Origin: Hyaloraphidium curvatum SAG 235-1
Taxonomy: Eukaryota; Fungi; Monoblepharomycota
Direction of reading: 5' to 3'
DNA: 64,000 nucleotides
NCBI GenBank assembly: GCA_025558095.1
Contig: JAIVFI010000037.1
Span: 124,001-188,000 of the forward strand
Shown here piece by piece: positions 23,690-56,933 of this stretch (the stretch's first letter is position 1; every line of letters begins with the position of its first letter). The notes beneath the pieces are model-generated. The model saw nothing but the letters and a program-made list of their open reading frames with translations, had not been told where the DNA came from and did not search any database. Made by a program: the position numbers and the translations under genes.

Positions 23690-25412
23690 CTACGCTTGCG
23701 GCTCGAGCTTGGCAAGAGCCGCCAGTGGGAAGACGCCCCGGACCTTCGTGGTCAGGTTCGTTCCCGTGGCCCAGCCGTCCGCGTAGACCTAAAGTTAACA
23801 AGGCGGGTCAACAGGCAAGTCATGACATCCGGAAAACAACACCAACCTCTTCGACCATCACGAGGTTGGACTCGCTAAGGACAATCTCGTCCTCGTTCGT
23901 CGGCACGAAGGTGCGAATGCAAACGTACTTGCCCGTCGCTCCTCGAGAGGCTGTCGAGGCGGAAGCGGAATTCGCCGCCACCGTCCCCGCTGCGGCGGCG
24001 CCGGCGACGCCGGCGGCCCCCGCGAGCGCACCGCCAGCGATTGAGTCCATGGCGATCGTGTAGCCGGGGTAGCCTGCCGCCGTAGGAGAGTCCGGACCCG
24101 ACGGCTGCAGGGTGTAGTTGGCAAGCGGGCTGGCAGCCGCGCCCGGGTCGTTGAAGGAAAGCTCGGCGGGGGGCACGTATGGCGGTGGCTCCTTGCCAGC
24201 AAACGCGAATGTCGCCGAATCGCCCTTGGCCGTCATCTGGGGCTCGGCAAAAGAGACATCCTTGGGTGTCTCGGCGGCGGCGGTGGCGGCGGGTTGGTTG
24301 CGCTTCCGCGTAAAGTACCAGGCGAGCAGGCCCAGGGCAACAAGCAGCGCGAGAACACCAATGACGATCCCGACGATGGCGCCGACGGAGAGACCGCCGC
24401 TGGAAGTCGACCCGTTGGAAGGCACGCAGGAGGTGCCGTCGTAGACAAAGCCGTCCAAGCAGGTGCAGGTAGCCGAGCTGGAGAGCGTAGCGTTGGAGCC
24501 GCCGCAGTGGAGCATGGCGAAGGACTGCATGCGCTGCCTGTTGGCCCGCCAGCCGGTTTGGGCGGTGAAGCCGACGTAGACTTGCGGCGCGCTCCGAAAC
24601 AGGCCAGGGATGTCGAGGTTCGGGCAGGTGAAGTTGACCGTCATCTGGCTCGTGCCCGCTAGCGCTCCGGCATCCGACTGGCCCGGAGGCACGACGTTCG
24701 AGGCATTGACGAACGCGGGCGCTCCGCCACCGGGGTAAAGGAACGTCACGGTCCACTTCCTAAAGTCGCGGAGAGCATACGGTGTCGGCAGCTGGACGTC
24801 GCATTTCACATCTCCCGGCCACATGAACTTGCGGTTGGTGAAGACGGCGATGAAGTTGTTCGGAGGCTCAGCGAGGTCGTCCTCGACACCGACGTTGTTG
24901 GACCAGGAGTCGGCGTGGAGGTGGAAGGTGGGCTCGTTCGAAAGCGGCCTGGGCCGGTCGTAGATCATGTCGGGTCGTCCGTCCGGGAGCTGTGCGGGGG
25001 CCGAGGACCGGATGATGAAGCCCACGCCGTCTGCGCCCGAATAGTTATAGTTGTCGATTGGGGCGCCTTGGGGGAAGGTCTGGATCGGCTCGTCGAGCGT
25101 GAACGAGAAGGTGACGGAGAACGACGAGAGCAGGGACGAGGAAATGGGGGAGTTGAAGTATCCCGCGCCCTCCTGACTGTGGTCCGACGGCGTGAGCTGT
25201 AGATCCCCGCTTTGGAAGGTCGCGTTCCCGCTGCGCGTCCAGTAGGCGGTGCCGAACGCCTGCGACGTGCCCGATACGATCCTCTGGGGCACGGTGTGAG
25301 ATGCCGCAGACGGCGGCCGGGAACGCGGCACCTTCGCGGGGAACGAGTTCTGCGCCATTGCACCCACTACGCCGACAACAAGCAGGCACGCAGTAACAAC
25401 GGCGTCGCGCAT
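23690..25412 (-). CDS. Single-pass receptor-like protein: signal peptide, legume (L-type) lectin, EGF-like module, TM helix, cytoplasmic SH3
   Basis: LQLT..QEGAGYF, FSVTFSF, GADGVGFII, VYVGFTAQTG; CTCLDGFVYDGTSC; GAIVGIVIGVLALLVALGLLAWYF; SH3 YVCIRTFVPTNEDEIVL..|VYADGWATGTN..GVFP. Confidence 0.85.
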
Positions 25413-25770
25413 CGCGACGGGCGGCGGATCCCGATGGGCGCGGGCCGAGGGGACGAAGTGGGGCACAGCAACCAGTCGATCCGACCCTTCGTTTCCGATC
25501 ACCCCGCACGCCAAGCCACCTGAACGCAACGTTCGGAACTTAGACTGAATCGCACCTCGGAGACAATCAACGGGTATTGGAAAACATTGTTCGATCCGGG
25601 CTCCAGTGTTCCTGAGTTTGGACGGCATGAAGTTGGAATGGAACGGATCGTCCGATGCCGCAGCAGCCGCAAACCGTACCTGGGCGAGTTACTCAACGAA
25701 ACACACCTGATATTATAGCTCTGGTGTAGCTCGTGCCTCGTGATAAAGGGTGGAACGGGCAGGTGCCGCG

Positions 25771-27107
25771 ATGGCTGGGACCAGCATCCCCCTCCAGTTC
25801 CTTTTCGTTTCCCACAAAGATGGCCTATCCGCGGGCAAGGAGCCCAAAGGAGATGCCGCCCTTCCTCCCGGCGCCGAAAAGAACATCGACCCCGCCGATG
25901 CGGACTTCATCGAGCGATTCGACTCCAAAACCTCGTCGCTTGCCGCCGAAGTGGACATCGCGTTGGCTGCGCTCGAATCCGTCCTCCGCCGCCCTTCTCC
26001 CGCCGCCTCGGACGTCCAGCTGGCCATTGACGCTTACGTGGGGGCTTGGGATTGCCTGGACCCGCTTTTGCGGGCGAATCTTCGCCTCAGGTTCGTGCCG
26101 TCGGATTCCCGTCGCGACGCGCTTCCCGACCTGCTCGCGGACCACCGGGAACTCGGCGACGTTACATCATGTGCTTCGGCGACGGCTCAGCTGCGTACTA
26201 GGCGCTTGCAAGCCGCCTGTTCCGCCCACTCTACGGGCTGATCAGGAGGCAGGTTTTTCTCCACCTCGAACCTGGACTGCATCGCTTTTACGGGTTCATG
26301 GACACGGACAATGGCCGCAGGGGCGTGCTAGTCGGCATGGCGCCACGGCTGCACCAGGCCAAGGTGCGGGAACGCGTCTTGTCCTTGGTCAACAGCCCGG
26401 TGTACCGACGACTCGTGTTTGGTACCAGCGTGATGTCCAGCCTTGTGTGGGCATCGAGGACCAACCGCAAGAGGTTCCTCGAAGACGTGGATCTGCATGA
26501 CGCCCTCATTGCGTTTGTGATGGACTTCGTTGCTGCGGACCGCGTCACGGACGACATGGCAAAGAACCCCAAGCGTTTGGCATACGAAATCCAGGCGGCC
26601 ACGCTCTTGCTCGACTTTGTGGTTGCCGAACGCCCGCAGCAGTGGGTGGAGCGCGCGGCTGACCCCGCCCGTGCCCGGCTGGGGCTGCCGGTGATCTATT
26701 CCAAGGGCTATCGGCCCGGGGCCGTCGGAGGCTTTGACAGAGACTCCCTCATGAGCACGCTCTCTGAGCTTATGATGTGGCTGACCGGCCTCACGCGCAC
26801 GGACACCCATTTGCACCAGCTGACCGAGCCAATCCAGCACTTGGCCACAGCGTCCTTCACTTTGCTGCAATCGGCGTTCGTGCCCGTCGCCATGCCGGAG
26901 ATGCCCGGCATCATGGATGAATATCGGAAGGATGTGAAGGCTTACGGCAAGGTCGCACCCAGCTTCTGCGACCTGTGCGGACAGGCTCCCGCGGAAGGCG
27001 CGAAGCTGAAGAAGTGCTCGAGGTGCGGGATCGCTTGGTACTGCTCGGCCGAGTGCCAGAGGGAAGACTGGAAGGCGCACAAGCCCGCGTGCTCCGGCAA
27101 GAAGTGA
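25771..27107 (+). CDS. C-terminal MYND zinc-finger protein with one apparent frameshift near 26195; paralog of 37112..38445
   Basis: CDLC..LKKCSRCGIAWYCSAECQREDWKAHKPAC. The second frame ASRLFRPLYGLIRRQVFLHLEP aligns with the paralog's LSRIFSSVYGVLRRVLFLHLEP, so the frame change is unlikely to be an intron. Confidence 0.75.
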
Positions 27108-35221: not shown

Positions 35222-35879
35222 CGGGAGCGTTCGGCGGCGCGGAAGTCGGTCCCGGCAGGGGGAATGAAGCGACGGCCACTCGCGGAGCGGCGACGCTTGC
35301 GGATCCGCGCGCCGCCCGCCGTCGAGGGCGAAGGCACGGGGGCGGCCGCCGGAGGTCATCGCGCCGAACAGAGGGAGAGTCGGGGGTTTGCCGTCCGCGG
35401 CACCATTATCGAGTCAGAGCTGTGTGGGACGGTCGTGCCGCTGACGACCCCCCGACGCCGCTTGCCGCATGCCAGAAGGATCTTCCACCCGCCACCGCCC
35501 GTCCCCTGAGGATTATCCACGAACCAGGGGATTAGACAGCCAATTGTCGGAGCACTCATAGTGATGCCGAACGATCCATGGCCATCCCGCGCGATCGCTT
35601 TTGCGGGGGGATGCAGTTCTTGCGCGCCGGAAGGAATTGGCGCCGGTGCTTATACCGTCTTCGTGTTCCTCTGCCGCACGGATGACTACTAAAGACGATC
35701 TCGTCCTGGGCGATGCGTTGATGCTGGGCCATGTCCTCATGGTTTCGATCGACGGCGAGCTTGCACTGTCCCGAGGATTTGCAGCCCGGCCGGCCTGCCG
35801 ACGCTCGTCAAACAACTCCCTCTGCGGCCCGCTAAAGTCGCGCGCCGGCCATTTTTCCTTCCTCTCGCGCCGTTCCAAA

Positions 35880-37059
35880 ATGTCGAGCGCGAAGCGTACC
35901 CACATCCGGAAGGATGCCGAGGATGTCCCCGTGCCGCACTGGGTGTCTCCCGCGCTTCTCGCCTATCACGCGAACCCCGACATGGTCAATCGGCCGATCA
36001 AGCGCGTTCCGGCGCTTGACGACAGGGCCTCTTGGAACAAGATCTTCCGCTCGATCGACAGGTGGGAGATGTGCGGGGCCCGCTGGACATCGCTAAATCG
36101 GCACTCTCGAAGGATGAACGACGACCTCGGCCAGAAGACCGGGCAGATTGCCGCCTTCGAGCGCACCTACACGACCACGGGACCGTTCAAGATCGCTGGG
36201 GTCGACTGCTACCTGAGCGAGCCCAAGTCCGGCGTTCCGGCGGCGAACCAGGACAAGCTCTTCCTCCAGGTCCATGGCGGCGCGTACACGCTCTACACGG
36301 GGTCGCGCTGCGCTCGGAACGTGCAGCGGATTCCCGACATCTGCCAAGTCCGCGCGCTCTCGATCGATTATCGGTCAGCCCCCGACCACCCGGTCAGTAC
36401 TTGTCGAGCAGAATCCGAAGACATGCTGCTGACGCCCTGTTCAGTTCCCCGCTGCTCTCGACGACGTTGCGGCCGTCTACCTCGCCCTTCTTTCGACCCC
36501 GAACCTGATCCCAGGCCGCTCGGGCACCTACAAGCCGTCGCAAATCGGCATGTTTGGCGTCTCGGCCGGCGGCGGGCTCATCGCGGCGACCGTCCTCTAC
36601 CTCAAGGACAACAAGCACCCGCTCCCGGCCGCCGTCGCCCTCTTCACCCCCTGGGCCGAGCTGGACGAGATCGGCGACTCCCGCTTCACCAATAAGCACC
36701 TCGACCTCTCGCTCTTCGAGCATGCGGGCGGCGTGTTGGAGGCCTCTGCCAAGCTGTACGCCGGCAGCTACAGCCTCAAGCACCCGTACATCAGCCCCGT
36801 CTACGGCGACCCGCGGGGCTGGCCGCCCACTATCTTTGTCTCGGGCACCCGCGACCTCCTCCTCTCGGACTCTTGCCGTCTGCACCGCGCCCTCCGCAAC
36901 GCCGGCAACAGGGACACCGAGCTCCACGTGACTGAGGGCATCTACCATTCCGTGACGGGTTTGCCGGGGGTGCCGGAGTGCGAGAGCACGGACGGCGAGG
37001 TGGCAAGATGGTTTGCCAAGTACCTGGGGCTGCAGATCAAGGAGGCCTCGAAGCTGTGA
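35880..37059 (+). CDS. HSL/GDXG-family esterase (Abhydrolase_3)
   Basis: HGGAY, IDYRSAPDHP|FPAALDD, GVSAGG, SGTRDLLLSD, EGIYH; introns near 36065 and 36393-36444. Confidence 0.9.
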
Positions 37060-39127: not shown

Positions 39128-40612
39128 CTACGTCGGTGCGGGGCAGTACGTCTGCAAAGTCACGTACGCCCCGAACCCGCGCAGGATGCTCCAGCACCCA
39201 ACCACAAGGGTCAGCAGCGTCACCGCGATCGTCTTGGCCAGCCCGTAAGTGACCGGCAGACCCGCGAACCGGATCGTGTGGTGCTCCGCGGCTCCCGCGA
39301 GGGCCTGGAGCAGCGCGGCGCGGGCACGCAGGCGGTCCCGCACCGCGTCGCGCTGCGGCGTGGGAGGGAGGCCGGCGGATTCCGAGAGGAGGCCGACGAG
39401 GGAGAGGTGCGCCCCCCGGTACAGCTCACCGATGGCTTCCATCTGGCCGTTGAGGCTCGGGAGCTGGAACACGCCGAGCGCCACGAAGAGAGGGATGTAG
39501 AGAATGCAAGCTAGCACGTATCCCGGAATGCACGATCCTGTGGAGACTGAAATAACCAGTTGAACGACGGCCATTGGGAGGGGCCCGGCGATGATAACAG
39601 CAATAGTCGGGCCGACACCGTAGGCAGACCAGCGCAACGCGTAGCCGCGGTGCAAAACGGTGAAAAGCTCCCTGGCCGGCAACGTATCCGAGTCGAGGGA
39701 GCAGTCCGTCAGGGCCGAGGCAGCGCGGGAAAGGAAGGAAGAGAGGGAGAGGTACGTCGCACGTCGGAACACGCGCGTCCCGATGCGAACGAGTGGGTCG
39801 CTTGCGACGGAAAAGGTGAGAAAAAACGAAGGGAGAGACCACTGGAGGATCGCGAACAGCGAAAAGGCGCCTAGGAAGGCGCTCCACGCCTGCGGCCACA
39901 AGTACTCGCCAAGGTAGACGACCGCGGTCCAGCGGATGAGGAACATGAATAAGGCGGAAGGCACCTGCTGCCCGAGGCTTCGAACAAGGCGCTCCCAGGG
40001 GATCCAGCGCACGAGTGGGGTCGTACACTTGCGGCACGGGCAGAAAGGGTCGCCAGCGACGTGGGCAACGAGCATCGACATTCCTTCCACTTGGAGTTGC
40101 CACAGTCTTCCGAGCTGTTGCACGAAGGCAAGATGCAAATCGCACGGCCTCGGTGCACCTCTGGACGCCTTGTGCACGACCGCGCCGAAGATAACGGTTA
40201 AAGCGGAAACCGTAGCAAGGTTGACCGTGCCTGCAACGAGCTGCGTACGACCAAAGGTGCCCGTCGGATCCAGAAGAAACGGAATAGGCAAGATGCAGAC
40301 CACGCCCAAGGCGTGGACAACGCCCGGCACCCAGGTCAGGCCGTACGACATCCACGGCGAGAGCGTCCGAATGCCCCGCTCCTGGAACGCGAGCCAGCCT
40401 CCACCGCACTTCGCCGCGGCCGCGATCCATTCGTCGTAGGTGATGGGGTCTGCCGGCTCGGCGTGCTTGTCACCCGGGCCCTTGCCGTCCGCTGCGAGGG
40501 GCAGCCGGTCCGCGAACGGCGCGGCAGCGGTCGGGGGCGCGGTCGGGAAAATGGCGCGCCACTCGTGAACCGAAAAGTCCAGAAGGTCCGTCGGCGGCGC
40601 AGGAGGAGGCAT
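39128..40612 (-). CDS. Seven-TM membrane protein, gustatory receptor-like (7TMIC) candidate; paralog of 11335..12918
   Basis: Intronless; EWRAIFP, DPFCPCRKC, LNGQ, IRFAGLPVTYGLAKTIAVTLLTLVVG...YCP. Confidence 0.6.
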   Translation of the reverse strand: MPPPAPPTDLLDFSVHEWRAIFPTAPPTAAAPFADRLPLAADGKGPGDKHAEPADPITYDEWIAAAAKCGGGWLAFQERGIRTLSPWMSYGLTWVPGVVHALGVVCILPIPFLLDPTGTFGRTQLVAGTVNLATVSALTVIFGAVVHKASRGAPRPCDLHLAFVQQLGRLWQLQVEGMSMLVAHVAGDPFCPCRKCTTPLVRWIPWERLVRSLGQQVPSALFMFLIRWTAVVYLGEYLWPQAWSAFLGAFSLFAILQWSLPSFFLTFSVASDPLVRIGTRVFRRATYLSLSSFLSRAASALTDCSLDSDTLPARELFTVLHRGYALRWSAYGVGPTIAVIIAGPLPMAVVQLVISVSTGSCIPGYVLACILYIPLFVALGVFQLPSLNGQMEAIGELYRGAHLSLVGLLSESAGLPPTPQRDAVRDRLRARAALLQALAGAAEHHTIRFAGLPVTYGLAKTIAVTLLTLVVGCWSILRGFGAYVTLQTYCPAPT

Positions 40613-41006
40613 CGCGGACCAATGGCTGCGGAGAACCGGCGGGACCAGCTCGAGACAAGTAGTGGGATGGTTTACATCCCGATTAAACGCCAGGAACATG
40701 GCCGAAGCAACACCTGGACATGGTCACCAGCGCCCCAAGGCGTGTAGAAGAGCTCCCCATCCACAAAACCAGCAAGCTCAGCAGGTGCGTAGCCATGGCC
40801 GTTGGATTGGGCGGCAAGCGTGCAGGCCGCCAAATCCAGTTGCCAACAATAGCAACCATCACGCCACCAAGCATGTCTCGCCGCGTGCTCACCAGGAAGT
40901 GGAAGGAAGGAAAGCCTGCAAATGTGCAAATGATTCGTGCAGCAGCGTATCGCATGTACAGGTGCAGCGATCACCCTATCTTACACCCCGTCGCCCGGTA
41001 TCCCTG

Positions 41007-43488
41007 TCACGCTGTGTCCTTCCTCTGCAGCGTCGGCACCGTGACCGTCATCTCTGGAGGCACCAGCAGCCCCGGCGACTCGGGTCCCGCGGCGCCGACC
41101 ACCGACTCGGTGCCGCCGCTCTGCACCCGGTCCAGGTTCCCGCTCGGCGCCCTCTCGAGGTTCCCGCTCGGCGTCCTGTCCACGCCCGACATCGACGGCC
41201 TCCTCGGCGACCCGTACGTCACGCCAACCTCGATCCCGTTCACCCGGAGGATGCTCCCCCTCCTCCCCCTGAGGTCCCCGCTCGCGGCGCGCAGCACCTC
41301 GGCCCCGTTCTCGGCCGCGAACTGCTCCCCCGTGATCCCCATGGTGTCCGCGACCAGCTGCGCCTCCCTCGCGCGCATCAGATCCGCGTCCATGCTCCGC
41401 CGGTCGATCCGCTCCCGCTCCGTCAGCGGCGGCGGCGCGACCTTCTCCGTGCCGGTCGGAGACTTGGACACCCCCTCGGCCTCGGCCCGCAGCCGGGCCA
41501 GCGCGGCCTCGCCGGGGATCTGGAGGTGCAGGAAGCGGAAGGCGGCGTCGGTGGAGCGCACGATGAAATCGTGCATGCGCCGCTTGAACGTGCCCGGCGC
41601 GCCGATGTCCATCGAGCCCGCGACGTATTCGCCAAAGTCCTCCAGATGTTCGCGGCCGTAGACCGACCGCTCGAGCTCCTGCCGCACGTGGTACCGCTTG
41701 TAAGTGTAGTACGCCATCAGCCAGAGGTTGGCGATCAGCAGCAGTCCCATGAGGATGCCGCACAAAAGCCACAACCACGGGAAACTGCCCTGGGGAAGCT
41801 GCACGAGGATGGCGATGTTGAACAGGGCCCAGAAGGGCAGGACGGTGCGGCGGCAGAAAAAGTCGAGCTCGGTGGCGAGGATGTGGTTGCCCTCGCGCTT
41901 GACGAGGTGGTGGATGATGGCGACCTCGAGCAGCGAGAAGAAGGCCACGACGAAGGACACGAAGACGTACCTGGAGCGGGATCAGCGGTGAGCGTTCACA
42001 CAGTCGGCGGCAACCCACCAGTCGATCGTAGTCGCGTAGTTGACGAGCGGCAGCCCCGCAGTCACCGAGCTATAGAACGATACTACATCCCCCGCACATC
42101 AGCCTCACCACCAAGATACACCACACAGGAACCCACCGATGGTGAGCACGAGCGTGATGCTCAGACCAAGCCGCTCCGGCACGGCCTCGACGCTCAGCCA
42201 GTAGCTGACGGCGGTCAGCGCGACCAGGAGGAGGAGGGGGAGGAACGACTTGATGTAACTGCGCGGAAAGAGGAGTCAGGAGAGATCGGCGGCGCAATAA
42301 GCGCGAGACACGCACTAGCTGCCCGACTTGCGGCTGATGTACATCTGGAACTTGAGCAGGTCGTACGCCGGCTGCCCCTGCCGCGAGTAATACTTTTCCC
42401 TGCTCGCCTGGTAGGTCTGGTAGTCCCACGTGACCTGCGAGAAGGTCTCGGGGTTGATGGGCGGGTACACCGTCTCGGGCTGCCAGAACACGGCCATCTG
42501 GTTCTCGTTGTACGAGTACGAGGTGAGCTGCATCTCCAGGACCTGACGGTCGAAGGGGAATGCTCCGAGGTAGAAGGAGTTGGTGAGCTGCACGACAAAG
42601 TGCCGGGACCAGAAGACGTCCCCGGTGTAGGGGGTGAGCTTGATAACCTCGTCCAGCGTCACGGGGTCGACTTCGTTGGCAAAGTAGATGTCGGGCGTCC
42701 ATATGGCGCTGCATGGTGATGGTCAAACGCGTGCCGGCCGCAAGACGGGTCGGTACCCACTGAGTGGGGCCCCATCCGCCGCCGAGGGCGACAGATCCCA
42801 TGATGCGGTAGTCGGATCCGTTGGGCGAGGGAAAGTCATCCGGGGAGACGATGAGCCGGGGGTCGTTCCAGTACAGGCGGAGGAAGACGTCGATGGTGAA
42901 GGTCGAGGTCACGGGGTCCACGTCGTAGAGGTTGTTCACGCGGAACTGTTGCCGCCGGAACGGCCGGGAACGATGCGGAAAAATGCGCGGGGCAGGGCGA
43001 AGGGCGCGGAGGAGGCCGGTCAGCCGATCCGCGTTCGCAGGAAAAGCCGGTCGGCCTGGCGGAGCGCGCAGGGACGCACCTGAGCACGAACAGGGGTGGC
43101 ACCCTGGCCGAATCCGGGCCGAGTGCCTGCGAGGACGAGCAAAAGAAATGAGCCCCGAGGCCGGCCGGGGTCCGCCGGGCCACGCACCGGCGTCGTACGG
43201 GGTGTCTTCTCCGGCCACGGCACTTTGGAGCACCTTTGTGGCATTCTCGAACGCGAAACCCGGGTACAGCCGCGGCAGCAGGTGCCTGCGATCGAACTGG
43301 TGCAGCTGCGGGGCCACGGCGTGCGGCGACGGCTCGTCCCGCATGGGTGGCCGCGGACCGCCGTTGGCCCACGAGCCCCGGCGGCCCAGGAACCGTGGGC
43401 GGCCCGGAGCGGCGAGCGCCGTCGGCGCAAACAGTGCGAAGAGGAGGAGCGCGGTGCACGCGCGCACGGCGAGGTTCGGCGGCCGCAT
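41007..43488 (-). CDS. Pentameric ligand-gated ion channel subunit A (Cys-less Pro-loop type), 7 exons
   Basis: Signal peptide; YD..RP, VDPVTSTFTIDVFLRLYWNDPRL, IWTPDIYFAN, FPFDRQ, M1 YIKSFLPLLLLVALTAVSYWL, M2 PERLGLSITLVLTIVSF, LPLVNYATTIDWY, M4 LDFFCRRTVLP. Confidence 0.93.
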
Positions 43489-43695
43489 GGTCGGAGCCGT
43501 TGCTCGGGGAACGAGGTCGGTTTGTCGGTCGGCCCAGCCCCGCCCAGGGTCCGGCGGGGCGGGCCGCCTTTGCATCAAAACCCGCACCGCCGGGGGCACG
43601 CGGATCGGGGCTTACGCCGGCGCTTCCCGCCGGCCGCGGCCGCACGACGAGCCTGCGTTGAGCCGGACGCGGCCGAGGCGTCGTCGGGCCGCAGA
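43489..43695. promoter_or_regulatory. Putative bidirectional promoter between the two pLGIC genes
   Basis: 207 bp between divergent ATGs at 43488 (-) and 43696 (+). Confidence 0.5.
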
Positions 43696-45602
43696 ATGCC
43701 CCCCACGCTGACCGCACGTCCGCCGGGCGGCACCCGCCCAACCGCAGCCGGAAAACGACCAGCCCGCCCGGCAGCATGGACTGCCCTCCTTGCATTTGCC
43801 ATCTCCATTGTGCTCTGGATTTTCCCTGGCCCGACCGCCGCCGCCGTCGAGGGCTGGTCGCTCACCAACGCGACCAAGGTCATCTTGAACTCCCTTCTCG
43901 ACGCGGGATACGACGCCGCGTCCAGGCCGGGCTTCGGCAGCGGTGCGCCCACCCCAGTTTATGCCCAGCTGCAGATCATATCGCTGTACGAGGTCGATCC
44001 GCTCTCGTCGACGTTCACCGTGGACGTCGAGCTAACCCTGCGATGGAACGACCCGCGCCTGGTCTTCAACTACGACGACTACCCTGTGCCCGAGGGCTCG
44101 GACCTGCGTTTAATCGGGTACACCGAACTCGGCAGCGGGATTGGACCCACGCACATAATATGGACGCCCGACGTCTACTGGGAGAACGAGGTCGATCCCG
44201 TGATTTTGAACCAGGTCATCAAATTAGCACCGGGCACCGGCGACCTGACGTGGACGCGGCACTACCTGGTGCAACTGACGTCGGTATTTAGCTTCCAGTC
44301 CTTCCCCTTCGATTTGCAGGTCGGTGGACGCACGTCGTATCGCGCAGCGTCGCTGACCTCCCCCCCCCCCCCCCCCCCTCGCAAGGACCTGCGCCTCATG
44401 CTCACCCCCTACTCCTACAACTCGCTCCAGATGTCCCTTTACTGGAGCGAACCCCCGATCGCCCCCGAGCCCGCCTCCTTCAACCACGCTACGTTCGACT
44501 ACAGATCGTACAAGGTCGCGCGCGAGCTCTTCATTTCGCGAGAGGGCCAGCCCACCTACGACCGCCTCATCATCGACGTGGCCGTAACGCGCCGGAGCGA
44601 CGGGTACATCATCAAGGCCAACCTGCCCCTCATCCTGCTCGTCGCGCTGTCGGCCGTAAGCTACTGGCTCAGCGTCGAGGCCGTCCCCGAGCGCCTCGGC
44701 CTCGTCGGTGCGTGTCCCGTGCCGCACGCGCAACCGCATGCACGCCTGACCGTCCCCTCCGCATCCAGTCACCCTCGTCCTAACCGTCGTCTCGTTCTAC
44801 TCCACCGTCACCGCCGGGCTCCCCGCCGTCAACTACCCGACGACGATGGACCTGTACGTGTTCGCCTGCTTCTTCGTGACCTTCATGGCGCTCGTGGAGG
44901 TGGCCGCGGTGCACCACCTCGTGGTGCGGAGGAACGACGTGGTCATGGCGACGGAGCTAGACTACTACTGCCGGAGGGTCGTGCTCCCCGTGTGGGCCAT
45001 CTTGTGGGTCTCCCCTTCCGGTCTGCCGGTTGTTGAATGCGTGCTGATGCGGCCCCCCGCGCAGCAACCTGATCCTGATCCAGAACGGCGGCCAGGCCCT
45101 CGGCATCTGCATCGGCGTCGCCATCTTCGTCATCATCATCTGGAACGCGTGGATCTTCTACTACCGCGTGCGCAAGCGGAAGCAGCGCGCCTTTGAGGCT
45201 ACCGCCGACGGCGACGAGCGCCTCGAGAGGAAGGCGTACAAGCGCGAGCTGGGCAAGCTGGTGCGTTGGACCGACAAGCTGTACAAGTTCCTGCACATCC
45301 GGCCGCCCGTGAGCGACGAGCAGGCCGCGAAAGAGCACATGGAGGAGCTGGAGCGGATGGCCGAGGCGGAGAGGCTGTGGCTGGAGGAGCAGCGCGAGGC
45401 CGAGGCGGCCGAGGCGGCGGCGATGGCCAGGGCCGGGTCGCCGAGCTCGGCCAAGAGGGCGGGGAGCTCCAGGGCCGGGTCGCCGACCGACGCCAAGAGG
45501 AGGGGGAGCTCGAGGGCGGAGTCGCCCGCGGACGTGAACAGGGAGGGGAGCGGGAACGGGAGCTCGTTGGGTACCGCAGTCGAGGACTCGGGGTCGCGGT
45601 GA
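43696..45602 (+). CDS. Pentameric ligand-gated ion channel subunit B (Cys-less Pro-loop type), 4 exons
   Basis: YDAASRP, VDPLSSTFTVDVELTLRWNDPRL, IWTPDVYWEN, FPFDLQ, YIIKANLPLILLVALSAVSYWL, PERLGLV|VTLVLTVVSF, LPAVNYPTTMDLY, LDYYCRRVVLP. Confidence 0.93.
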
Positions 45603-45928: not shown

Positions 45929-46784
45929 ATGGCCGAAGACTGCCCCGCCGGCACGTGGTGCCACTTCCTGGCATTCACCGCGGCCCCCTTCCTGGGCAGC
46001 CTCTTCGCCTTGGCGCTCTACCTGTCCCCCTTCCCGGCCGTCCTTCGAGTACGGTCCTCCGGCCGCCTGGGCGCGCTCAACACCTTCCCGTACCCGTTCA
46101 TCGTCGGCAACTGCTTCGCGTGGCTGTTCTACGGCTACTTCCTGCGGGACCCGTACCTTGTCCTGCCCAACGTGTTCGGCGCGTGCACAGGGTTCCTGTA
46201 CGTCGGGCTCACGGGCCCCTTCCTGGACGCCGCGGCGAGCCTGCGCAACTCTGTCGCGCTGGCGGTGCTCGTGGGATGGGATCTGCTCGGGGCGCACGTG
46301 GCGTTCGTGTTTTTCGGGCCCGGGGACGAGGGGAAGAAGGTGCTCGGGTGGTGCGCCGTGATCATGAACGTGGCCTTCTTTGCCAGCCCGCTGTCTGCGC
46401 TCTGGAAGATCCTGAGGTCCGGAGACGCGTCGTCGGTGCACCTGCCGCTGGCCGTGGCGACGGTGGTGAACTGCTCCCTGTGGACGACCTACGTGGGTTT
46501 CTCGCCCTAGCTTTCGCTCCCCTCGTGCTGACAGCCCTCCTGGACGTTCATTTCAGGGCTTCTTCCTCAGGGATCCTTTCATATTCTTCCCGAACGCGTT
46601 TGGGCTGCTCTCGGCCGTGGCTCAGCTCATTCTCGCCTGCGTGTTCCCCCGGCTGGAGCTTTCGGAGGACACCGAGCCTGTCGCGAACGGCGTTGCCCAC
46701 GCGGACGAGGAGGCACAGGATGCGGACGGGGAGACGGATGTCAGGGCGCCGGTGCTGCCGAAGCGGGGAGCGGGGCACGTGTGA
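45929..46784 (+). CDS. SWEET (MtN3/saliva) sugar transporter
   Basis: LYLSP, PYPFIVGNCFAWLFYG, PNVFG, FFASPLS, NCSLWTTY|GFFLRDPFIFFPNAFG; one intron. Confidence 0.93.
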
Positions 46785-46983: not shown

Positions 46984-49548
46984 ATGAAGCCGGGATTCAC
47001 GCCCGTCACGGGCGGTGGAGGCACCGATCGCGGCCGGCAGCAGCGCCCGCAGATCGCCGTGCCCGCGATGGCCGCGCCCGCGGCGTCTGCAGGCGGCACC
47101 CACGCAGCGACCCCCACCGGCCCCCCGTCGCCCGCGCCCGCGTCGCCGCTCGCGACCCCGGAGAACCCGTTCCCGCCGATCCGCCCGCGATCGGCGTCGC
47201 TCTCGCGCGCGTCGGTGCCCGTCGATGTGGGTTCGACGCGTCCGACGGACGCCGACGGGGGACATCCCCAGTTCGCTGACCTCCCATTTCCCTCATCTAT
47301 TTCCCGAATCTCCATTCATTCATTATCGTTCGGATCGTTTTTCGTTGAATTCCCCGGAACCCCAGCCCTCGCGTCCGAAATCGCCCGCCGGGGAGGCGCC
47401 GCCGCCCTCGAGATCGCCGCCGCCGTCGCCTTCGCTCACGCTCAGCCGCGATCCCTCGTCGCCGCCCGAGCCGCTTGTCTTGCCGCCGATCGACGGCTCC
47501 GACGCACCGGTCATCATCGACGTGCCACCGCCCCGCGCACCCTCGCCCGACATTGCACCGCCGCCTTCGCCCAAGCTGCAGCCGCAGAGCATCTCCTTCG
47601 CGGCACCCTCGGGATCCTCCAACCCGCAGGCAGCTGGGACGGCGCCGTCCACCTCGACTGCAGCGCCCAAGCCTGCACCGGCCCCCGCGGTCCAGCAGCC
47701 CGTGCCGCGATCGCTCGCGCAGCCTCTTCCCGGCCAGGGCAAGCCAATGATTCCGCACAGCATGACTTCCGGTGTTGCCACTGGCGCGAAGCCAGCGCAG
47801 CCGGCCGCTTCGGGCCAGCAGCCCGTCTCTCCTTCGACCGAAGCCCCCGTGCCCTCGTACAAGCAGCCCATACCTACTCCTCAGCCCGTCAGATCGCCCA
47901 CAGGCTCATCCTCCTCCCTCTCCGTGCCCGGCGCCACCCGCCCCCGCGGCGGCCGCCGCGGCTCCGGCAACGGCAACGGCGCCGGCGCCATCGCCCTCAT
48001 CCCCCCCACCGCCGACCCCCCCGGCAAACCACCCCGCTACGCCATCCTCGACTACTCCGCCGAAGCCGGCGCGGGCCAGTACCAGGTCGGCACGACCTCG
48101 GCCTCGCTCGAAGCCTACCTCGCCGACGCCGCCTCGCACGGCGTGGGCGTGGGCAAGGGCGGCGGCGGCCGCGTGGGCGATTCCCAGCAGACGGCGCGGT
48201 GGGCGCACCTCTCCTATTCTGCACGCGAGCCCCGCTCGGAATGGGCCGCGATCGCACGGCAGATCAAGGCGCTGGGGAGCTTCCGCGGGGGCGGGAAGAA
48301 GGCGGGGATCGGCGGGCGCACGTACCAGAAGCAGACCCTCACCATCGACGAGGCCGGCGTCGGGTTCTCGATCCCCGTGTACGCGGAGGACCTCTCGTTC
48401 GGCGACGCCGTGGTTGAGGGCATCTCGCCTCGCGCGCCGGGGAGCTGGGACGAGTCCTTCGGCTCGGCGTACTCGGTCGTGCGCGCCGAGTCGACGGTGC
48501 TGGAAGCCCTGGCACGCGTCGAGGGGCGCGCGCTCAAGCGCGGGCGGATGGAGTTCAGGATCGAGTTCGTGCGCGGGTGGAGGGTGGACGACATCCGGAT
48601 GCTGCTGCTCACGGTGCTCTCGCTGCGCGACGGGGAGATCGAGAACGACCTGTTCGGGGATCCGCTGAGGGGGATCATGCCGACGGCCAACCTCTACACG
48701 GACGGGACCGCGCTCCTCGGCGCCGTGCTCAGGAGCGTCGTGGAGATCATGGCCGAGGTGGTGTCGTTCCTCGAAGACAGCTTCGCGGATGCCGAGGCGG
48801 TCGTTTTCATGAAGCCGGCAGTGCTGTACCAGCAGGGTGAGTTGTTTGCAGTACGGCTGGCGAGTTGGTTACGTTACTGAAGCATGCACCTCGCCCAGTG
48901 CTCACCGCGCTCAAGGCCGAGATGCTCGTCGTCAAGCGCGACCTCAGCGTGGCCGAGAACCAGATCCGCGCCCTCGCGGGCTTCCTCGTCGGCGTCGCCC
49001 CGCCCGGCTCCGCCTGGGCCGGCTCGGCGATCAACGTCGAGGCCGTGGCCAACGAGTGCGTCGTCCTGCGCGAGCGCACCGACGCGCTCCTGCAGCGGTG
49101 CGACGCGCTCGTGGGCCTCGTCAACTTCGAGGTCTCGGCGTTCCAGAACCGCATCATCTTTGCGCTCACCGCAGTCAGCATGCTCTTTGCCCCCGCGGGC
49201 ATCTACGCCGAGGTGATCAAGACGTCCGAGGAGATGGTGATCGGCGACGGGACGCCGCTCACGTGGTGGCTGGGCCTCATGCTGCTCTTTGCAATCACCG
49301 GCTTCATCCTCCTGCTCTGGGTGGGGCCGACGGTGATCCGGGACGGGTTCGAGGAGCTCAGCGAGTGGGACCGGGACGCGCTGACCCGCTCGCGCCGCAT
49401 CTTCTTCAAGCGCCTCGCGGCGCTGGTCGCCGAACGCCGCCGCATCGAGGCCGAGGAGGCGGAGATCGAGCGCGAGCGCGCGCTGTCGGATCCCAAGGAG
49501 GAACTGGAGCCCGGGGACGAAGGCGGACAGCCGACGCTCACGGGTTGA
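46984..49548 (+). CDS. Divergent CorA-like divalent cation transporter with a long Pro-rich N-terminus; in-frame extension to 49842 beyond the TGA
   Basis: Helical stalk LEDSFADAEAVVF..LKAEMLVVKR, QNRIIFALTAVSMLFAP, then two TM helices; no GMN motif; two introns. Confidence 0.7.
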
Positions 49549-51143: not shown

Positions 51144-51543
51144 CGCGGCGGGCCTGGGAAGCAGGTTTGGGACGCGTTGGCGAGGGTCGCACGGCGGGGA
51201 ACGCGCGGGTGGCAAGGCGTTGCTTTTCCTCCGCTCCGGCGCTCGCCGAGATCGGACCAGAGACTTCGATGTACAATTGGATGGAAGATCTGCAAGGCTT
51301 GCGACGAGATCTCTGCCGAGTACGAATCGGACGACTACGACGGGTACGGATACGGATACGATTACGTGGAATGCCGCTTCTGCGGCCATTCGTGGAATGG
51401 GGCACGCACTGGCGGCACCTGCTTCCAGTGCCGCGATAACCGGTTTTGGTGACGGACATGTTGATCTTCCGCAGTGTACTTCTTGGGGTGTGTGCATATC
51501 GATTGGTCCGAATCACCAGCGATCGCATTGCCCAAACCCCGTC

Positions 51544-54459
51544 CTACACCGGGAATATCCTGAGTGTCCCCTCCACCCTTCTCCTGCAAGCCGGGCACGG
51601 TCCCCCCTCCAGCCTCGGCGCGCAGAAAACGCACGACAGCAGGTGTCCGCACGGGACCATGGCCACGCACCGCAGGTCCCCGACGCAGAGCAGGCACGGC
51701 GAGGCCATGCCCTCCGCGGGGTCCTCCTCCTCGGGGACGGGCGCGCGCTTGCCGCGGCGGGAGGGGGCGGGGTTGGGTGCGGGAGCGGGTTTGGGAGCAG
51801 GCTGCGAGGGGGGTGTGCCGCGGCGGGCGAGGGCGGGGTGGGATTCGGAGATGGGGGAGGGCTGGCTCGGCGGCGAGGAGGAGAAGAGGGAAAAGTGCGA
51901 GGGCTGCGCGGCCAGCTGTGCCCAGGTCTTTTGTCCGGGCGGGTTGGCCTCGGCGGAGAACGGGCGGAGCAGATTGGGGCCGCTCTCGGGAACCGGGGGG
52001 GTGGCGAGCTTGCGGATCGAGGAGCCGATGATGCCGGCCTTGGGCGACGCCGAGGGGGAGTTGGGGAGGAGGCCGAAGCGGTTGGAGCCGGCAAAGGCGG
52101 GCGAGACGATCGGGTCCTCGTCGGGCACGATCCGGCCCGCGTCCTCCCGGCGCGGCAGCACGGCGGCGGACGGCTGGAAAGGTTCCGCGATGTCCTGTGG
52201 GGAAAGAGGCACGATGTCAGCGCGCGAAAACGTCGACGCAGCCGTCCGAGACCCACCGCAGCCCCGATCCCGATCCCCACCAGCCTCGACACGTCGAACG
52301 CCTCCCCCTTCTCCTCCGTCACCGTGCTGCTCTCGCTCCCCGAGTAGCGCGGGCTCCCGCGGTGCGCCGTTTCCGAGTCCGACGCGCTGTCGTGCAACTC
52401 GAGGGGGTCCGGGGAGCGGGCCTTGCGCGGGGGGTCGGCGGGCGGCGGGAGCGTCCGCGCGGGTGCGGGTTGAGGTGCGGGCTGGGGTTGTTGAGGCTGG
52501 CGCGGTAATGGCGCCGGGGCCGAGGCGGGGGCAGGAGGCGCGGGTGGGGGTGCAGCGGAGGGCACCGGGGTTGCGGGCTTCCTCTCCTTCTCCTTCTCCT
52601 TCTCCGCCGCGGGCTTCACCCCCGCCGGCTCGGGCGCCTTTGGCCGTTCCGGCAACGGCGCCGAAACTGGGGTCCCCCTGCCGCCGCGCTTCCGGCCTTC
52701 TGCGGGCTCCGGCTTCGGAGGCAGCGCGGGGCCAGCGTGCTTCGGCGCCGGCACTGCGGTCGGCAGCGGCTTCGGGGTGTCCTTCTCCTTCTCCTTCTCC
52801 TTCTCCGGCGCAGGCTTCGCGGAAGCGGGCTGCGCGCGGGCGGGTTGCGGAGACGGAGGCGCCGTGGCCGCGAACGCAGAAGCCGGCGCCGTCGCCGCGG
52901 ATTTGGCCGCCGGTCCGCGCTTCCCCGCCGCCTCGGCCGGGTAGGGCTCCAGCGGCGGCATGTCCGCGAACGCGTCCGGCTGCGCCTGCGGCGGCTGCTT
53001 TGCGGGCCCCTGCTTCTTCTGCGCCGGTGCGGAGGCGGGGGCGGGGGTCGGGGGTTTCGAAGGCGGCGGCTCGGGTTTGGGCGTCGCGGGGCGGGTATCT
53101 GCCCGGGCCTTGGCTGTAGGCTGGGGCGAGGGCTTGGCGGGCGGGTCCGGCGCGGGCTGCGGCTCGGGCTGCAGGTCCGGCGAGGGTAGCGCCGGGACGT
53201 TGGTGGGCGGGAGCACTGTGGGAGGACGACGCGTTGACGTCAGCGCTCCGATCCGCCGACGATGCCGCTCGGCCTCCCCACATTCGGGTTTCCTCGAGGC
53301 AAAGATCCGGTAGTGCAGGTTCGGCACCCATGTCGGCATTTTGCCCTCCAGCCTGTCCCAGAGGCTCGGCTTCCCCTTCCTCAGCGTGACCACGACGCTC
53401 TCCGCCTCGAGCTTCAGCTGGCAGTGCTTGGGCTGCACCGGCTGCGCCAGGTACAGCCGCAGACCCTGCGGCGTGCCGAGCTTGAACACCCTGTTGGGGA
53501 ACTGCACGTCCACGAGCCTCTCCCCCGTCACCACGACCCGCACGTCGTCCTCGACCAGCCCCGGCTCGTTCAGCCGGATGATCACGTCCGCGTAGGCGTC
53601 GGTCCAGTCGTGCTTGAGCTCCCTGTCGGTCCGCGCGCGCACGTGGTCCTTGGCAAACTCGGCGCGCTGCGCCTCCCTGTCGGCCTCGGCGGCGGCGCCG
53701 CCCGAGGGGTGCGGCCGGATCTTGCGGCAGTCCAGCTCCGAGACCCAGCGGGAGGAGGGATAGCGGTCCCACCCGACGTGGCGCACGCGGAAGTAGCGGT
53801 GCAGCGCAGGGCGGTCCGCGGTGGTTTCGGCGGGCTTCTTCTCCGAGGACTGGGGGGCGGCGTCGTCCTCCGGGGTGGCCTTGGCGAGGATCGAGGATCG
53901 GGGGAAGACCTGGAAGACGGCGGCTTCGAGGATCTGAGCGAGGGGGCGCCAAAAAAAGGACATCGATGCGGGAGAAGGGGAAAGGGGATCAGCGCCCCGA
54001 CCCCGGCACAACAGCAGGGCATTCCACCCACCGTTGCCACGACGGCATAACTGTCGTTTTGACACAGGATCGGGCCGGCGGTTTGCGGGCGCGTCGGGCG
54101 GGCAGGGGTTAGCGCGAACCGGGGGTCCCGGCAGGCGACTCACGGGCCGTCTGGAAGAGCGGGGGTCAGCTACCGCCGGGCAAAAAGGGCGGCAGAGTAC
54201 CCACAGAGCGCCAGAATCTCCTCGCCGAGCGAGAACATCTGCATCGTCGACTGGTTCAGCGCGGCGGCCGGGTCGGCGGGCACCTCGACCTGCGGGCATT
54301 GCGAGGTCAGCCCGCCCTCTCCCCCGCGCCCTCCGGCATCTCTCAGCCCACGTTCTTCCCCTTCCCTTTCGCGGCGGGCGGCGCGGGCGGCGGCGCGGCC
54401 TTTTCGGCCTTTGCCTTTGCGGCCGGGGGCGCGGCCGCGCGGTGCTTGTTCTTGGCCAT
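51544..54459 (-). CDS. Tudor-knot/chromo-barrel, CS(p23) domain, Pro-rich linker and C-terminal RING-HC: putative E3 ligase
   Basis: Spliced FSLGEEILAL|YGP|YAVVAT|ILEA..YFRVRHVGWDRYPSSRWV; CS HDWTD..V.IRL..LYLAQPVQPKHC..VVVTLRK..WDRLE; RING CLLC..PCGHLLSCVFC..CPACRRRV. Confidence 0.8.
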
Positions 54460-54616
54460 CGCGGGCGCGGCGGGGCCGGGGGAATCCGCTACGGGGAGAG
54501 AGGAAGCGCCATGGCCGCTGCGGCCGTGGGACGCGGTATACAGGGGGAATCAGGCGGGGCGAAGTTTGGACCGTCGACCGTCTTCTGCGCGGCCGTCATC
54601 GCCGCCTTCGCCTTCA

Positions 54617-56933
<2,317 letters not shown>

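Follow-up and report, generated by a model that had tools for sequence, protein, structure and literature searches.

Within the known pLGIC superfamily, subunits with a fifth helix represent a new architecture, which is common to a branch of fungal and choanoflagellate channels that includes the two subunits described here, which we call A and B. Canonical pLGICs have four membrane helices, end extracellularly after the fourth of these (M4) and keep their regulatory sequence in the loop between M3 and M4. We think it probable, on the whole of the evidence, that A and B are Cys-less pLGICs in which M1–M4 are followed by a further, membrane-crossing helix (M5) and then by a cytoplasmic tail that takes on the regulatory role which the M3–M4 loop has in animals.

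Both genes lie in a window of 64 kb (the whole stretch of DNA that was analysed, 64,000 nucleotides) with a GC-rich eukaryotic composition, where they are transcribed divergently, 207 bp apart, and are 50% identical across 450 columns. Gene models were made by six-frame reading and by joining exons at GT..AG borders. Gene A (41007..43488, minus strand; exons 43488-43188, 43126-43080, 42945-42761, 42708-42316, 42258-42137, 42082-42019 and 41970-41007) is modelled as a Cys-less pLGIC subunit of 691 residues in seven exons, on the strength of its open frame, RNA joints at introns 3–6 and a match to PF02931, while gene B (43696..45602, plus strand; exons 43696-44319, 44386-44707, 44769-45003 and 45065-45602) gives a second such subunit of 572 residues in four exons, with RNA joints at all three introns and matches to both PF02931 and PF02932. 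Pfam places these neurotransmitter-gated channel domains in four of the six exon pieces of A and B, and found nothing significant in the two pieces that hold M5 and the tails. The spacer between the two start codons (43489..43695), within which a transcript contig of B begins at 43638, is likely to be a shared bidirectional promoter. Introns 1–4 of A agree with the NCBI protein model P0001 from Hyaloraphidium curvatum (Fungi, Monoblepharomycota), a product of 359 residues that matches A over its first 349 (by eye), then keeps intron 5 and meets a stop in M2, so that the public model is left without M3–M5 and the tail. That these 359 residues are the true product of A is ruled out, as intron 5 (42083-42136) is spliced in RNA. 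The paralog models P0013 and P0016 appear to be similarly frame-shifted past M2–M3, and models of these kinds (P0001, P0013, P0016) mean that M5 is under-reported in databases.

Directly downstream of A is an intron-free open frame of 531 residues (39128-40723, minus strand) with several hydrophobic segments and no Pfam match, and immediately downstream of B is a SWEET/MtN3 sugar transporter gene (about 45930-46745, plus strand; PF03083). Further away, Pfam identifies an abhydrolase_3 esterase (35565-37059) and a CorA-like transporter (48841-49548), together with a MYND finger (26202-27107), all on the plus strand, and, on the minus strand, a legume-lectin-like domain (23820-25688), an HMGL-like enzyme (54614-56455) and a CS domain (51513-54488).

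The transcript evidence consists of the contigs of one run, X1, which we take to be RNA because its contigs show GT..AG joints. Seven of these joints fall at modelled intron ends (A introns 3–6 and B introns 1–3). One unbroken contig, 41822-40987, carries the end of M4, M5, the tail and the stop of A, and another of 1579 nt runs from 43638 to 45404, through the 5' leader of B, its three spliced introns and M5, and into the tail. The first-pass annotation had named removal of the segment from cDNA as the result that would overturn its reading; the contigs retain M5 and the tail in both genes, and removal of M5 by splicing is ruled out. Over 50 bases of the M4 of A (41823-41872) the cover is by short RNA pieces, with no bridging contig and no joint, and exons 1 and 2 of A lie outside the RNA cover, introns 1 and 2 resting on the agreement with P0001. 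A and B are expressed, spliced genes. Two further features of the locus deserve mention: a spike in RNA depth above 1000 at 41847-41902, made up of short contigs, some with one mismatch, which likely reflects reads common to more highly expressed paralogs, and a long poly-C run with an AAG end in intron 1 of B (about 44360-44385), which is in frame and stop-free and whose splicing is seen in RNA.

A and B each begin with a hydrophobic segment (a signal peptide), and PF02931 is matched above its cut-off, which denotes the beta-sandwich extracellular domain of the pLGIC (Pro-loop) superfamily. A and B keep FPFD (42549..42560 in A, minus strand, with no flanking cysteines), the beta9 aromatic, the pre-M1 Arg, the M1 Pro, the M2–M3 Pro, R0' and L9', which make up the conserved gating-interface and pore residues listed in the accessible text of Jaiteh et al. 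(PMC4795631). Among solved structures, GlyR and GABA-A receptors (for example, PDB 9bu2, 5tin and 8g5f) are the best sequence matches, with an E-value of 9e-42, and also the best fold matches, sharing with A and B the beta-sandwich domain, the M1–M4 bundle (seen here by alignment and in a paralog model) and the conserved interface residues. The differences are equally plain: the extracellular domains of A and B contain no cysteine and therefore no Cys-loop disulfide, the large intracellular domain between M3 and M4 is replaced by about 12 residues, the motif before M2 is PER rather than PAR, and the chain, instead of ending shortly after M4, goes on through M5 and a further 145–231 residues. 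The Cys-less (Pro-loop) pLGICs of protists and prokaryotes, of which GLIC and ELIC are the prokaryotic examples, are closer in other respects, having the F/YPxD loop without cysteines, a short M3–M4 loop and a unicellular host.

The pore itself suggests a change of ion. The PER motif occupies positions -2', -1' and 0' (42171..42179 in A, minus strand), and a Glu at -1' favours cations. PER is present in 9/9 rows of the Hyaloraphidium-type subfamily, as against PAR in 22/31 other M5-bearing rows, and the anion-type PAR is absent from A and B. The available portion of one source (PMC9962794) correlates PAR with anion selectivity, and on the difference between the two motifs we infer a switch to cation flow in the Hyaloraphidium-type subfamily. 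A and B would form a pentameric, ligand-gated pore that likely passes cations, judging from their sequences. It could be argued that they instead bind ligand and convey the signal by way of the tail to partner proteins, with little or no current, and a tail so large and conserved, which belongs to no family known, would suit such a role; nevertheless, FPFD, the pre-M1 Arg, the M1 and M2–M3 prolines, R0' and L9' are all in place and M1–M3 are 73-88% identical within the family, and we consider a non-conducting receptor very improbable.

The case for an extra helix depends on knowing which segment is M4. In A, a loop of about 12 residues after M3 (41868..41903, minus strand, by alignment), as short as the first-pass annotation had claimed, leads into a segment with the pattern D-x3-R-x4-P-x4-FN (41799..41867, minus strand), which is where the superposition of the paralog model on known structures also reaches; in B, the corresponding segment (44957..45083, plus strand) is placed by alignment and RNA and is split by intron 3 (45004-45064). 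When 65 rows are aligned from M2 on, LDFFCRRTVLPFWALFN falls without gaps on the M4 pattern D-x3-R-x3-P-x5-FN of 16 Cys-loop rows and eight Cys-less four-helix rows, all of which terminate within a few residues past M4 (1–29 residues in the eight Cys-less rows). This M4 is only weakly hydrophobic, with Kyte-Doolittle values of 1.45 in A and 1.42 in B, and 0.2-0.7 in some relatives, and its hydrophobic moment is 0.26-0.32. From alignment and from the modelled paralog, the fourth segment of A and B is a true M4 of the GlyR/GABA-A type.

What follows M4 in each protein was already recognised in the first-pass annotation, and the segments that it quoted are indeed there: FPWLWLLCGILMGLLLIANLWLMAYY-TYKR in A (41783-41694, minus strand) and ALGICIGVAIFVIIIWNAWIFYY-RVRKRK in B (about 45096-45182, plus strand). 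M5 is predicted at 41703..41777 (minus strand) in A, on hydropathy, moment, charge bias and the paralog model, and at 45093..45164 (plus strand) in B, on the first three of these. Its Kyte-Doolittle value, 2.32 in A and 2.45 in B, is like that of M3 and makes it the first or second most hydrophobic 19-mer past the extracellular domain in both proteins; its hydrophobic moment is low (0.19 and 0.08, respectively, compared with 0.70 for the helix in the tail of A), so that it is not amphipathic; and its G, N and W are invariant in 9/9 family rows. The alignment of A with B extends beyond it to a TD..F.FLH motif. An AlphaFold model of the paralog P0007, a protein 86% identical to A in M4 and 76% in M5, was made with an alignment of 83 rows and has a pTM of 0.70 and five helices (288-310, 316-338, 349-376, 381-408 and 416-453), where a prediction of four would have spoken against the first-pass reading, and its pLDDT is 96/95 over 421-440, which is M5. 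Its residues 60-414 can be superposed on chains of GABA-A receptors and GlyR, the best match (Z 26.8) aligning 324 residues at an rmsd of 1.9 A, and M5 finds no counterpart; in the beta-subunit chains the match extended as far as residue 447 or 487, where we take their M4 to end. Beyond residue 450 the pLDDT of the model is low, at 43-78.

The orientation of M5 can be read from charge. Basic residues mark the cytoplasmic flank of a membrane helix (the positive-inside rule), and Lys and Arg number 19 in 312 residues of the M4–M5 loops as against 175 in the 774 residues just after M5, being more numerous after M5 in 41/41 rows, which were chosen by eye. With the positive-inside rule, this cluster makes it likely that the tail is cytoplasmic. 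M5 likely crosses the membrane, by prediction at the lipid-facing rim, with its orientation deduced from charge, and it very probably returns the C-terminus to the cytoplasm. Both parts of the first-pass proposal, that each subunit has a fifth helix and tail after M4 and that this helix sends the C-terminus inwards, are thereby well supported, by M4 homology, hydropathy and moment, charge bias, the helix predicted in P0007 and retention in mRNA. The most direct challenge would be that there are four crossings after all, the weak 'M4' lying on the inner surface or being re-entrant (like MX or MA) and 'M5' being the real fourth crossing, with the tail extracellular or luminal. The low hydrophobicity and higher moment (0.26-0.32) of M4 lend themselves to this idea, as does a five-helix prediction for Alpo2 of Alvinella, ascribed to MX in the accessible part of that paper (PMC4801368). 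Against it, the segment bears the M4 signature in register and is modelled at the M4 position, the basic residues come after M5 and not after M4, N-glycosylation sequons are absent from the tail of A but number two in its extracellular domain, and the extra helix of Alpo2 was aligned with MX, in the M3–M4 loop, whereas that of A and B comes after M4. We regard an arrangement of four crossings as highly unlikely.

M5 is by no means peculiar to this locus. Six more paralogs named as H. curvatum, counted from database names (P0007–P0010, P0012 and P0013), and four further close relatives (P0006, P0011, P0014 and P0032) were found, and every complete member of these sets bears M5 together with a conserved tail. 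When 1.84 billion representatives were searched with a profile, the best 150 matches, which were listed, included distant proteins that bear M5. Of 30 matches whose organisms were looked up, M5-bearing ones came from Blyttiomyces, Globomyces (two), Podochytrium and Boothiomyces, which we take to be chytrid genera, and from the choanoflagellate Mylnosiga fluctuans, while Prochlorothrix was the source of one four-helix row; the search for other pLGICs with five membrane helices that the first-pass annotation had proposed has turned up predicted ones in chytrid and choanoflagellate relatives. An automatic and thus unbiased count over 160 proteins, 129 of them with a full core, scored a close hydrophobic pair after M3 and found it in 30/50 Cys-less rows versus 4/79 Cys-loop rows. 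The four are otherwise accounted for: P0021, P0030 (with two stretches) and P0098 have repeated membrane domains, and P0122 ends at M4, its pair being a segment of the pre-M4 loop. The 20 Cys-less rows that lack the pair comprise five truncated models, eight four-helix proteins, five with M5 and a weak M4, P0116, and P0005, a pLGIC named as Monoraphidium in which no M4 can be recognised after M3, perhaps owing to a gene-model error.

A tree was built from the extracellular domain to M3, that is, with M4 and M5 left aside, using 50 rows and 277 columns (31 M5-bearing rows, eight Cys-less four-helix rows and 11 Cys-loop rows including the outgroup). All 31 M5-bearing rows fall on one side of a branch with support of 97/92 and the eight Cys-less four-helix relatives fall outside it, although in a sample biased towards relatives of the query, with a long-branch root and prokaryotes barely sampled, a single origin of M5 is supported rather than proven. 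A quick tree of 68 rows gives the same branch (SH-aLRT 91) with four truncated models within it. A long-branch group of M5-bearing proteins with divergent pre-M2 motifs (P0081, P0150 and P0157) is sister to the Hyaloraphidium-type subfamily (95/89). Pattern scans of low sensitivity found no related loci in prokaryotic genomes or metagenome contigs.

The tail of A (41007..41702, minus strand) has 231 residues, is likely cytoplasmic from its K/R cluster after M5 and is present in RNA; that of B (45165..45602, plus strand), placed by RNA and charge, has 145. Each contains a predicted amphipathic helix, at 41520..41585 (minus strand) in A, with a moment of 0.70, conservation in the family and a counterpart at 480-498 of the paralog model, and at 45237-45302 (plus strand) in B, on its hydrophobic moment. 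The motif TD..F.FLH that the first-pass annotation saw in both tails holds up, as the alignment reaches it at the end of this helix (TD..FRFLH in A). Next comes, in A, a charged helix (ERERIDRRS...; 41358..41420, minus strand), helical in models and 52-71% identical to A among the A-type paralogs, but 33% in B. Over the 65 residues that follow M5, identity to A is 54-63% in seven A-type rows and 26% in B; the proximal tail of A-type paralogs is conserved as highly as the extracellular domain. The distal tail is 3-28% identical to A, and M5 plus tail of B 24-33%. No family match to M5 and the tail was found in Pfam or the ESM Atlas, a negative that argues neither for novelty nor for true absence. 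A single-sequence fold of the last exon of A was poor (pTM 0.30), its first 95 residues resembling antiparallel three-helix bundles (with 5j0l, 92 residues aligned at rmsd 2.4 and Z 8.6) no more closely than is common for helical models, and a prediction of four copies of the A tail, made with no alignment, scored 0.00, which speaks neither for nor against self-association of the tail.

As for kinase sites, RRxS is the PKA consensus. The basic-Ser sites named in the first-pass annotation survive in part: RRGS (41264-41253) and RRPS (41204-41193) in A, together spanning 41193..41264 on the minus strand, and RRGS in B (45498-45509, plus strand) are RRxS sites, but KRAGS is not. RRxS occurs nine times in 8/11 Hyaloraphidium-type tails (it is missing from 3/11) against 1.8 expected, with 0/2000 shuffles as high, an enrichment that overstates independence because the 11 tails are related and are not 11 independent trials. 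RRxxS (2 vs 1.7) and SxRR (3 vs 1.7) are not enriched in the tails, RRxS in the extracellular domains stands at 2 vs 0.74 (p 0.17), and RRS without a spacer is enriched in the tails (6 vs 1.8) owing to the conserved DRRS. Kinase control of the tails through RRxS is plausible from these patterns. Seven of the 11 tails, A and B not among them, contain DxDG, and five (P0006, P0007, P0008, P0014 and P0032) contain DxDGDG, 17-21 residues before the charged helix, which resembles, as we see it, Ca2+-binding loops.

In the 31 other M5-bearing relatives, by contrast, the median tail is 40 residues and RRxS is absent, which means that M5 did not arise for the long tail and is likely the older of the two. 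The long tail, with its amphipathic helix, charged helix and RRxS, is restricted to the Hyaloraphidium-type subfamily, M5 likely having come first. The same observation feeds a more modest explanation, namely that M5 does span the membrane but serves structure alone (folding, lipid contact or a built-in auxiliary helix) and that the cytoplasmic tail is a scaffold or trafficking element with no kinase switch. M5 is after all kept where tails are short and without RRxS, the distal tail is poorly conserved (3-28%), and animal receptors work without their M3–M4 loop, according to the available text of PMC2213565. This explanation sits uneasily with a proximal tail that matches the extracellular domain in conservation (54-63% among A-type paralogs) and with the recurrence of RRxS in distal sequence that cannot be aligned, and we consider it unlikely, though worth keeping in mind.

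Our preferred reading, of a channel whose tail has taken over regulation, would work as follows. Some extracellular or luminal ligand would open the pentameric pore of A/B, which would pass cations, to judge from PER; M5 would pack on the lipid-facing rim beside M4, as predicted, and continue as a cytoplasmic helix, followed by an amphipathic helix at the membrane surface (MX-like), the charged helix and a disordered end. Phosphorylation of the RRxS sites by PKA would tune trafficking or gating, the tail thereby replacing the animal M3–M4 domain in both trafficking and kinase control. A and B, with their 207-bp spacer in common, may be co-expressed and may co-assemble; it is the gene arrangement only that leads us to treat them as subunits of one channel. 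M5 would have arisen once, and early, in a structural or lipid-facing role, with the long tail added later in the Hyaloraphidium-type subfamily. More tentatively, and as something that could about as easily prove wrong, we would propose an ancient and hitherto undescribed five-helix branch spread over zoosporic fungi, a choanoflagellate and other microbial eukaryotes, in which the Hyaloraphidium-type subfamily switched from anions to cations and acquired an independent C-terminal regulatory domain, under the control of PKA and, for some paralogs, also of Ca2+ (DxDGDG), convergent with the animal M3–M4 domain.

That domain has an anatomy of MX and MA helices in 5-HT3 and nicotinic receptors, and the tails of A and B resemble it in their presumed workings: in both, a surface helix of amphipathic character is joined by a long, charged one and by kinase sites facing the cytoplasm; yet the animal domain sits between M3 and M4, whereas the tail comes behind the extra M5 and could not be related by sequence to any Pfam family. 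The animal loop has a role in trafficking and kinase control, as far as the accessible text of PMC2213565 goes. Alpo2 is like A and B in being a pLGIC predicted to have five membrane helices, but its authors, in the portion of PMC4801368 available, assign the extra one to the intracellular MX of the M3–M4 loop, while that of A and B lies beyond M4, is a conserved feature of a branch and precedes basic residues. The accessible text of the survey by Jaiteh et al. 2016 (PMC4795631) takes four helices as the architecture of Cys-less pLGICs, in which A and B differ from those surveyed, reports no pLGIC in Fungi and mentions, for some rows, additional sequence of an unspecified kind past M4. A literature search in which few subscription journals were covered turned up no paper dealing with a membrane helix beyond M4, a five-helix pLGIC or a fungal pLGIC, and there is nothing on five-helix pLGICs in the available parts of PMC11085791 and PMC8778642. 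In public annotations these fungal proteins already carry the label of neurotransmitter-gated channel domain proteins, so that databases show them to be present in fungi, yet this is apparently unreported in papers.

For the family of nicotinic, GABA-A, glycine and 5-HT3 receptors, the four-helix subunit with its C-terminus outside has been treated as fixed, and a whole branch with a fifth helix implies that pLGIC architecture can be extended. The M5 branch offers a natural way to test the function of the lipid-facing rim outside M4, and five-helix pLGICs suggest two separate origins of cytoplasmic regulation, reached by different routes. As the genes of A and B are small and expressed, and their host is a freshwater organism that does no harm, they are directly amenable to expression, electrophysiology and cryo-EM, and chytrid fungi and choanoflagellates gain, in these proteins, candidate fast chemical sensors.
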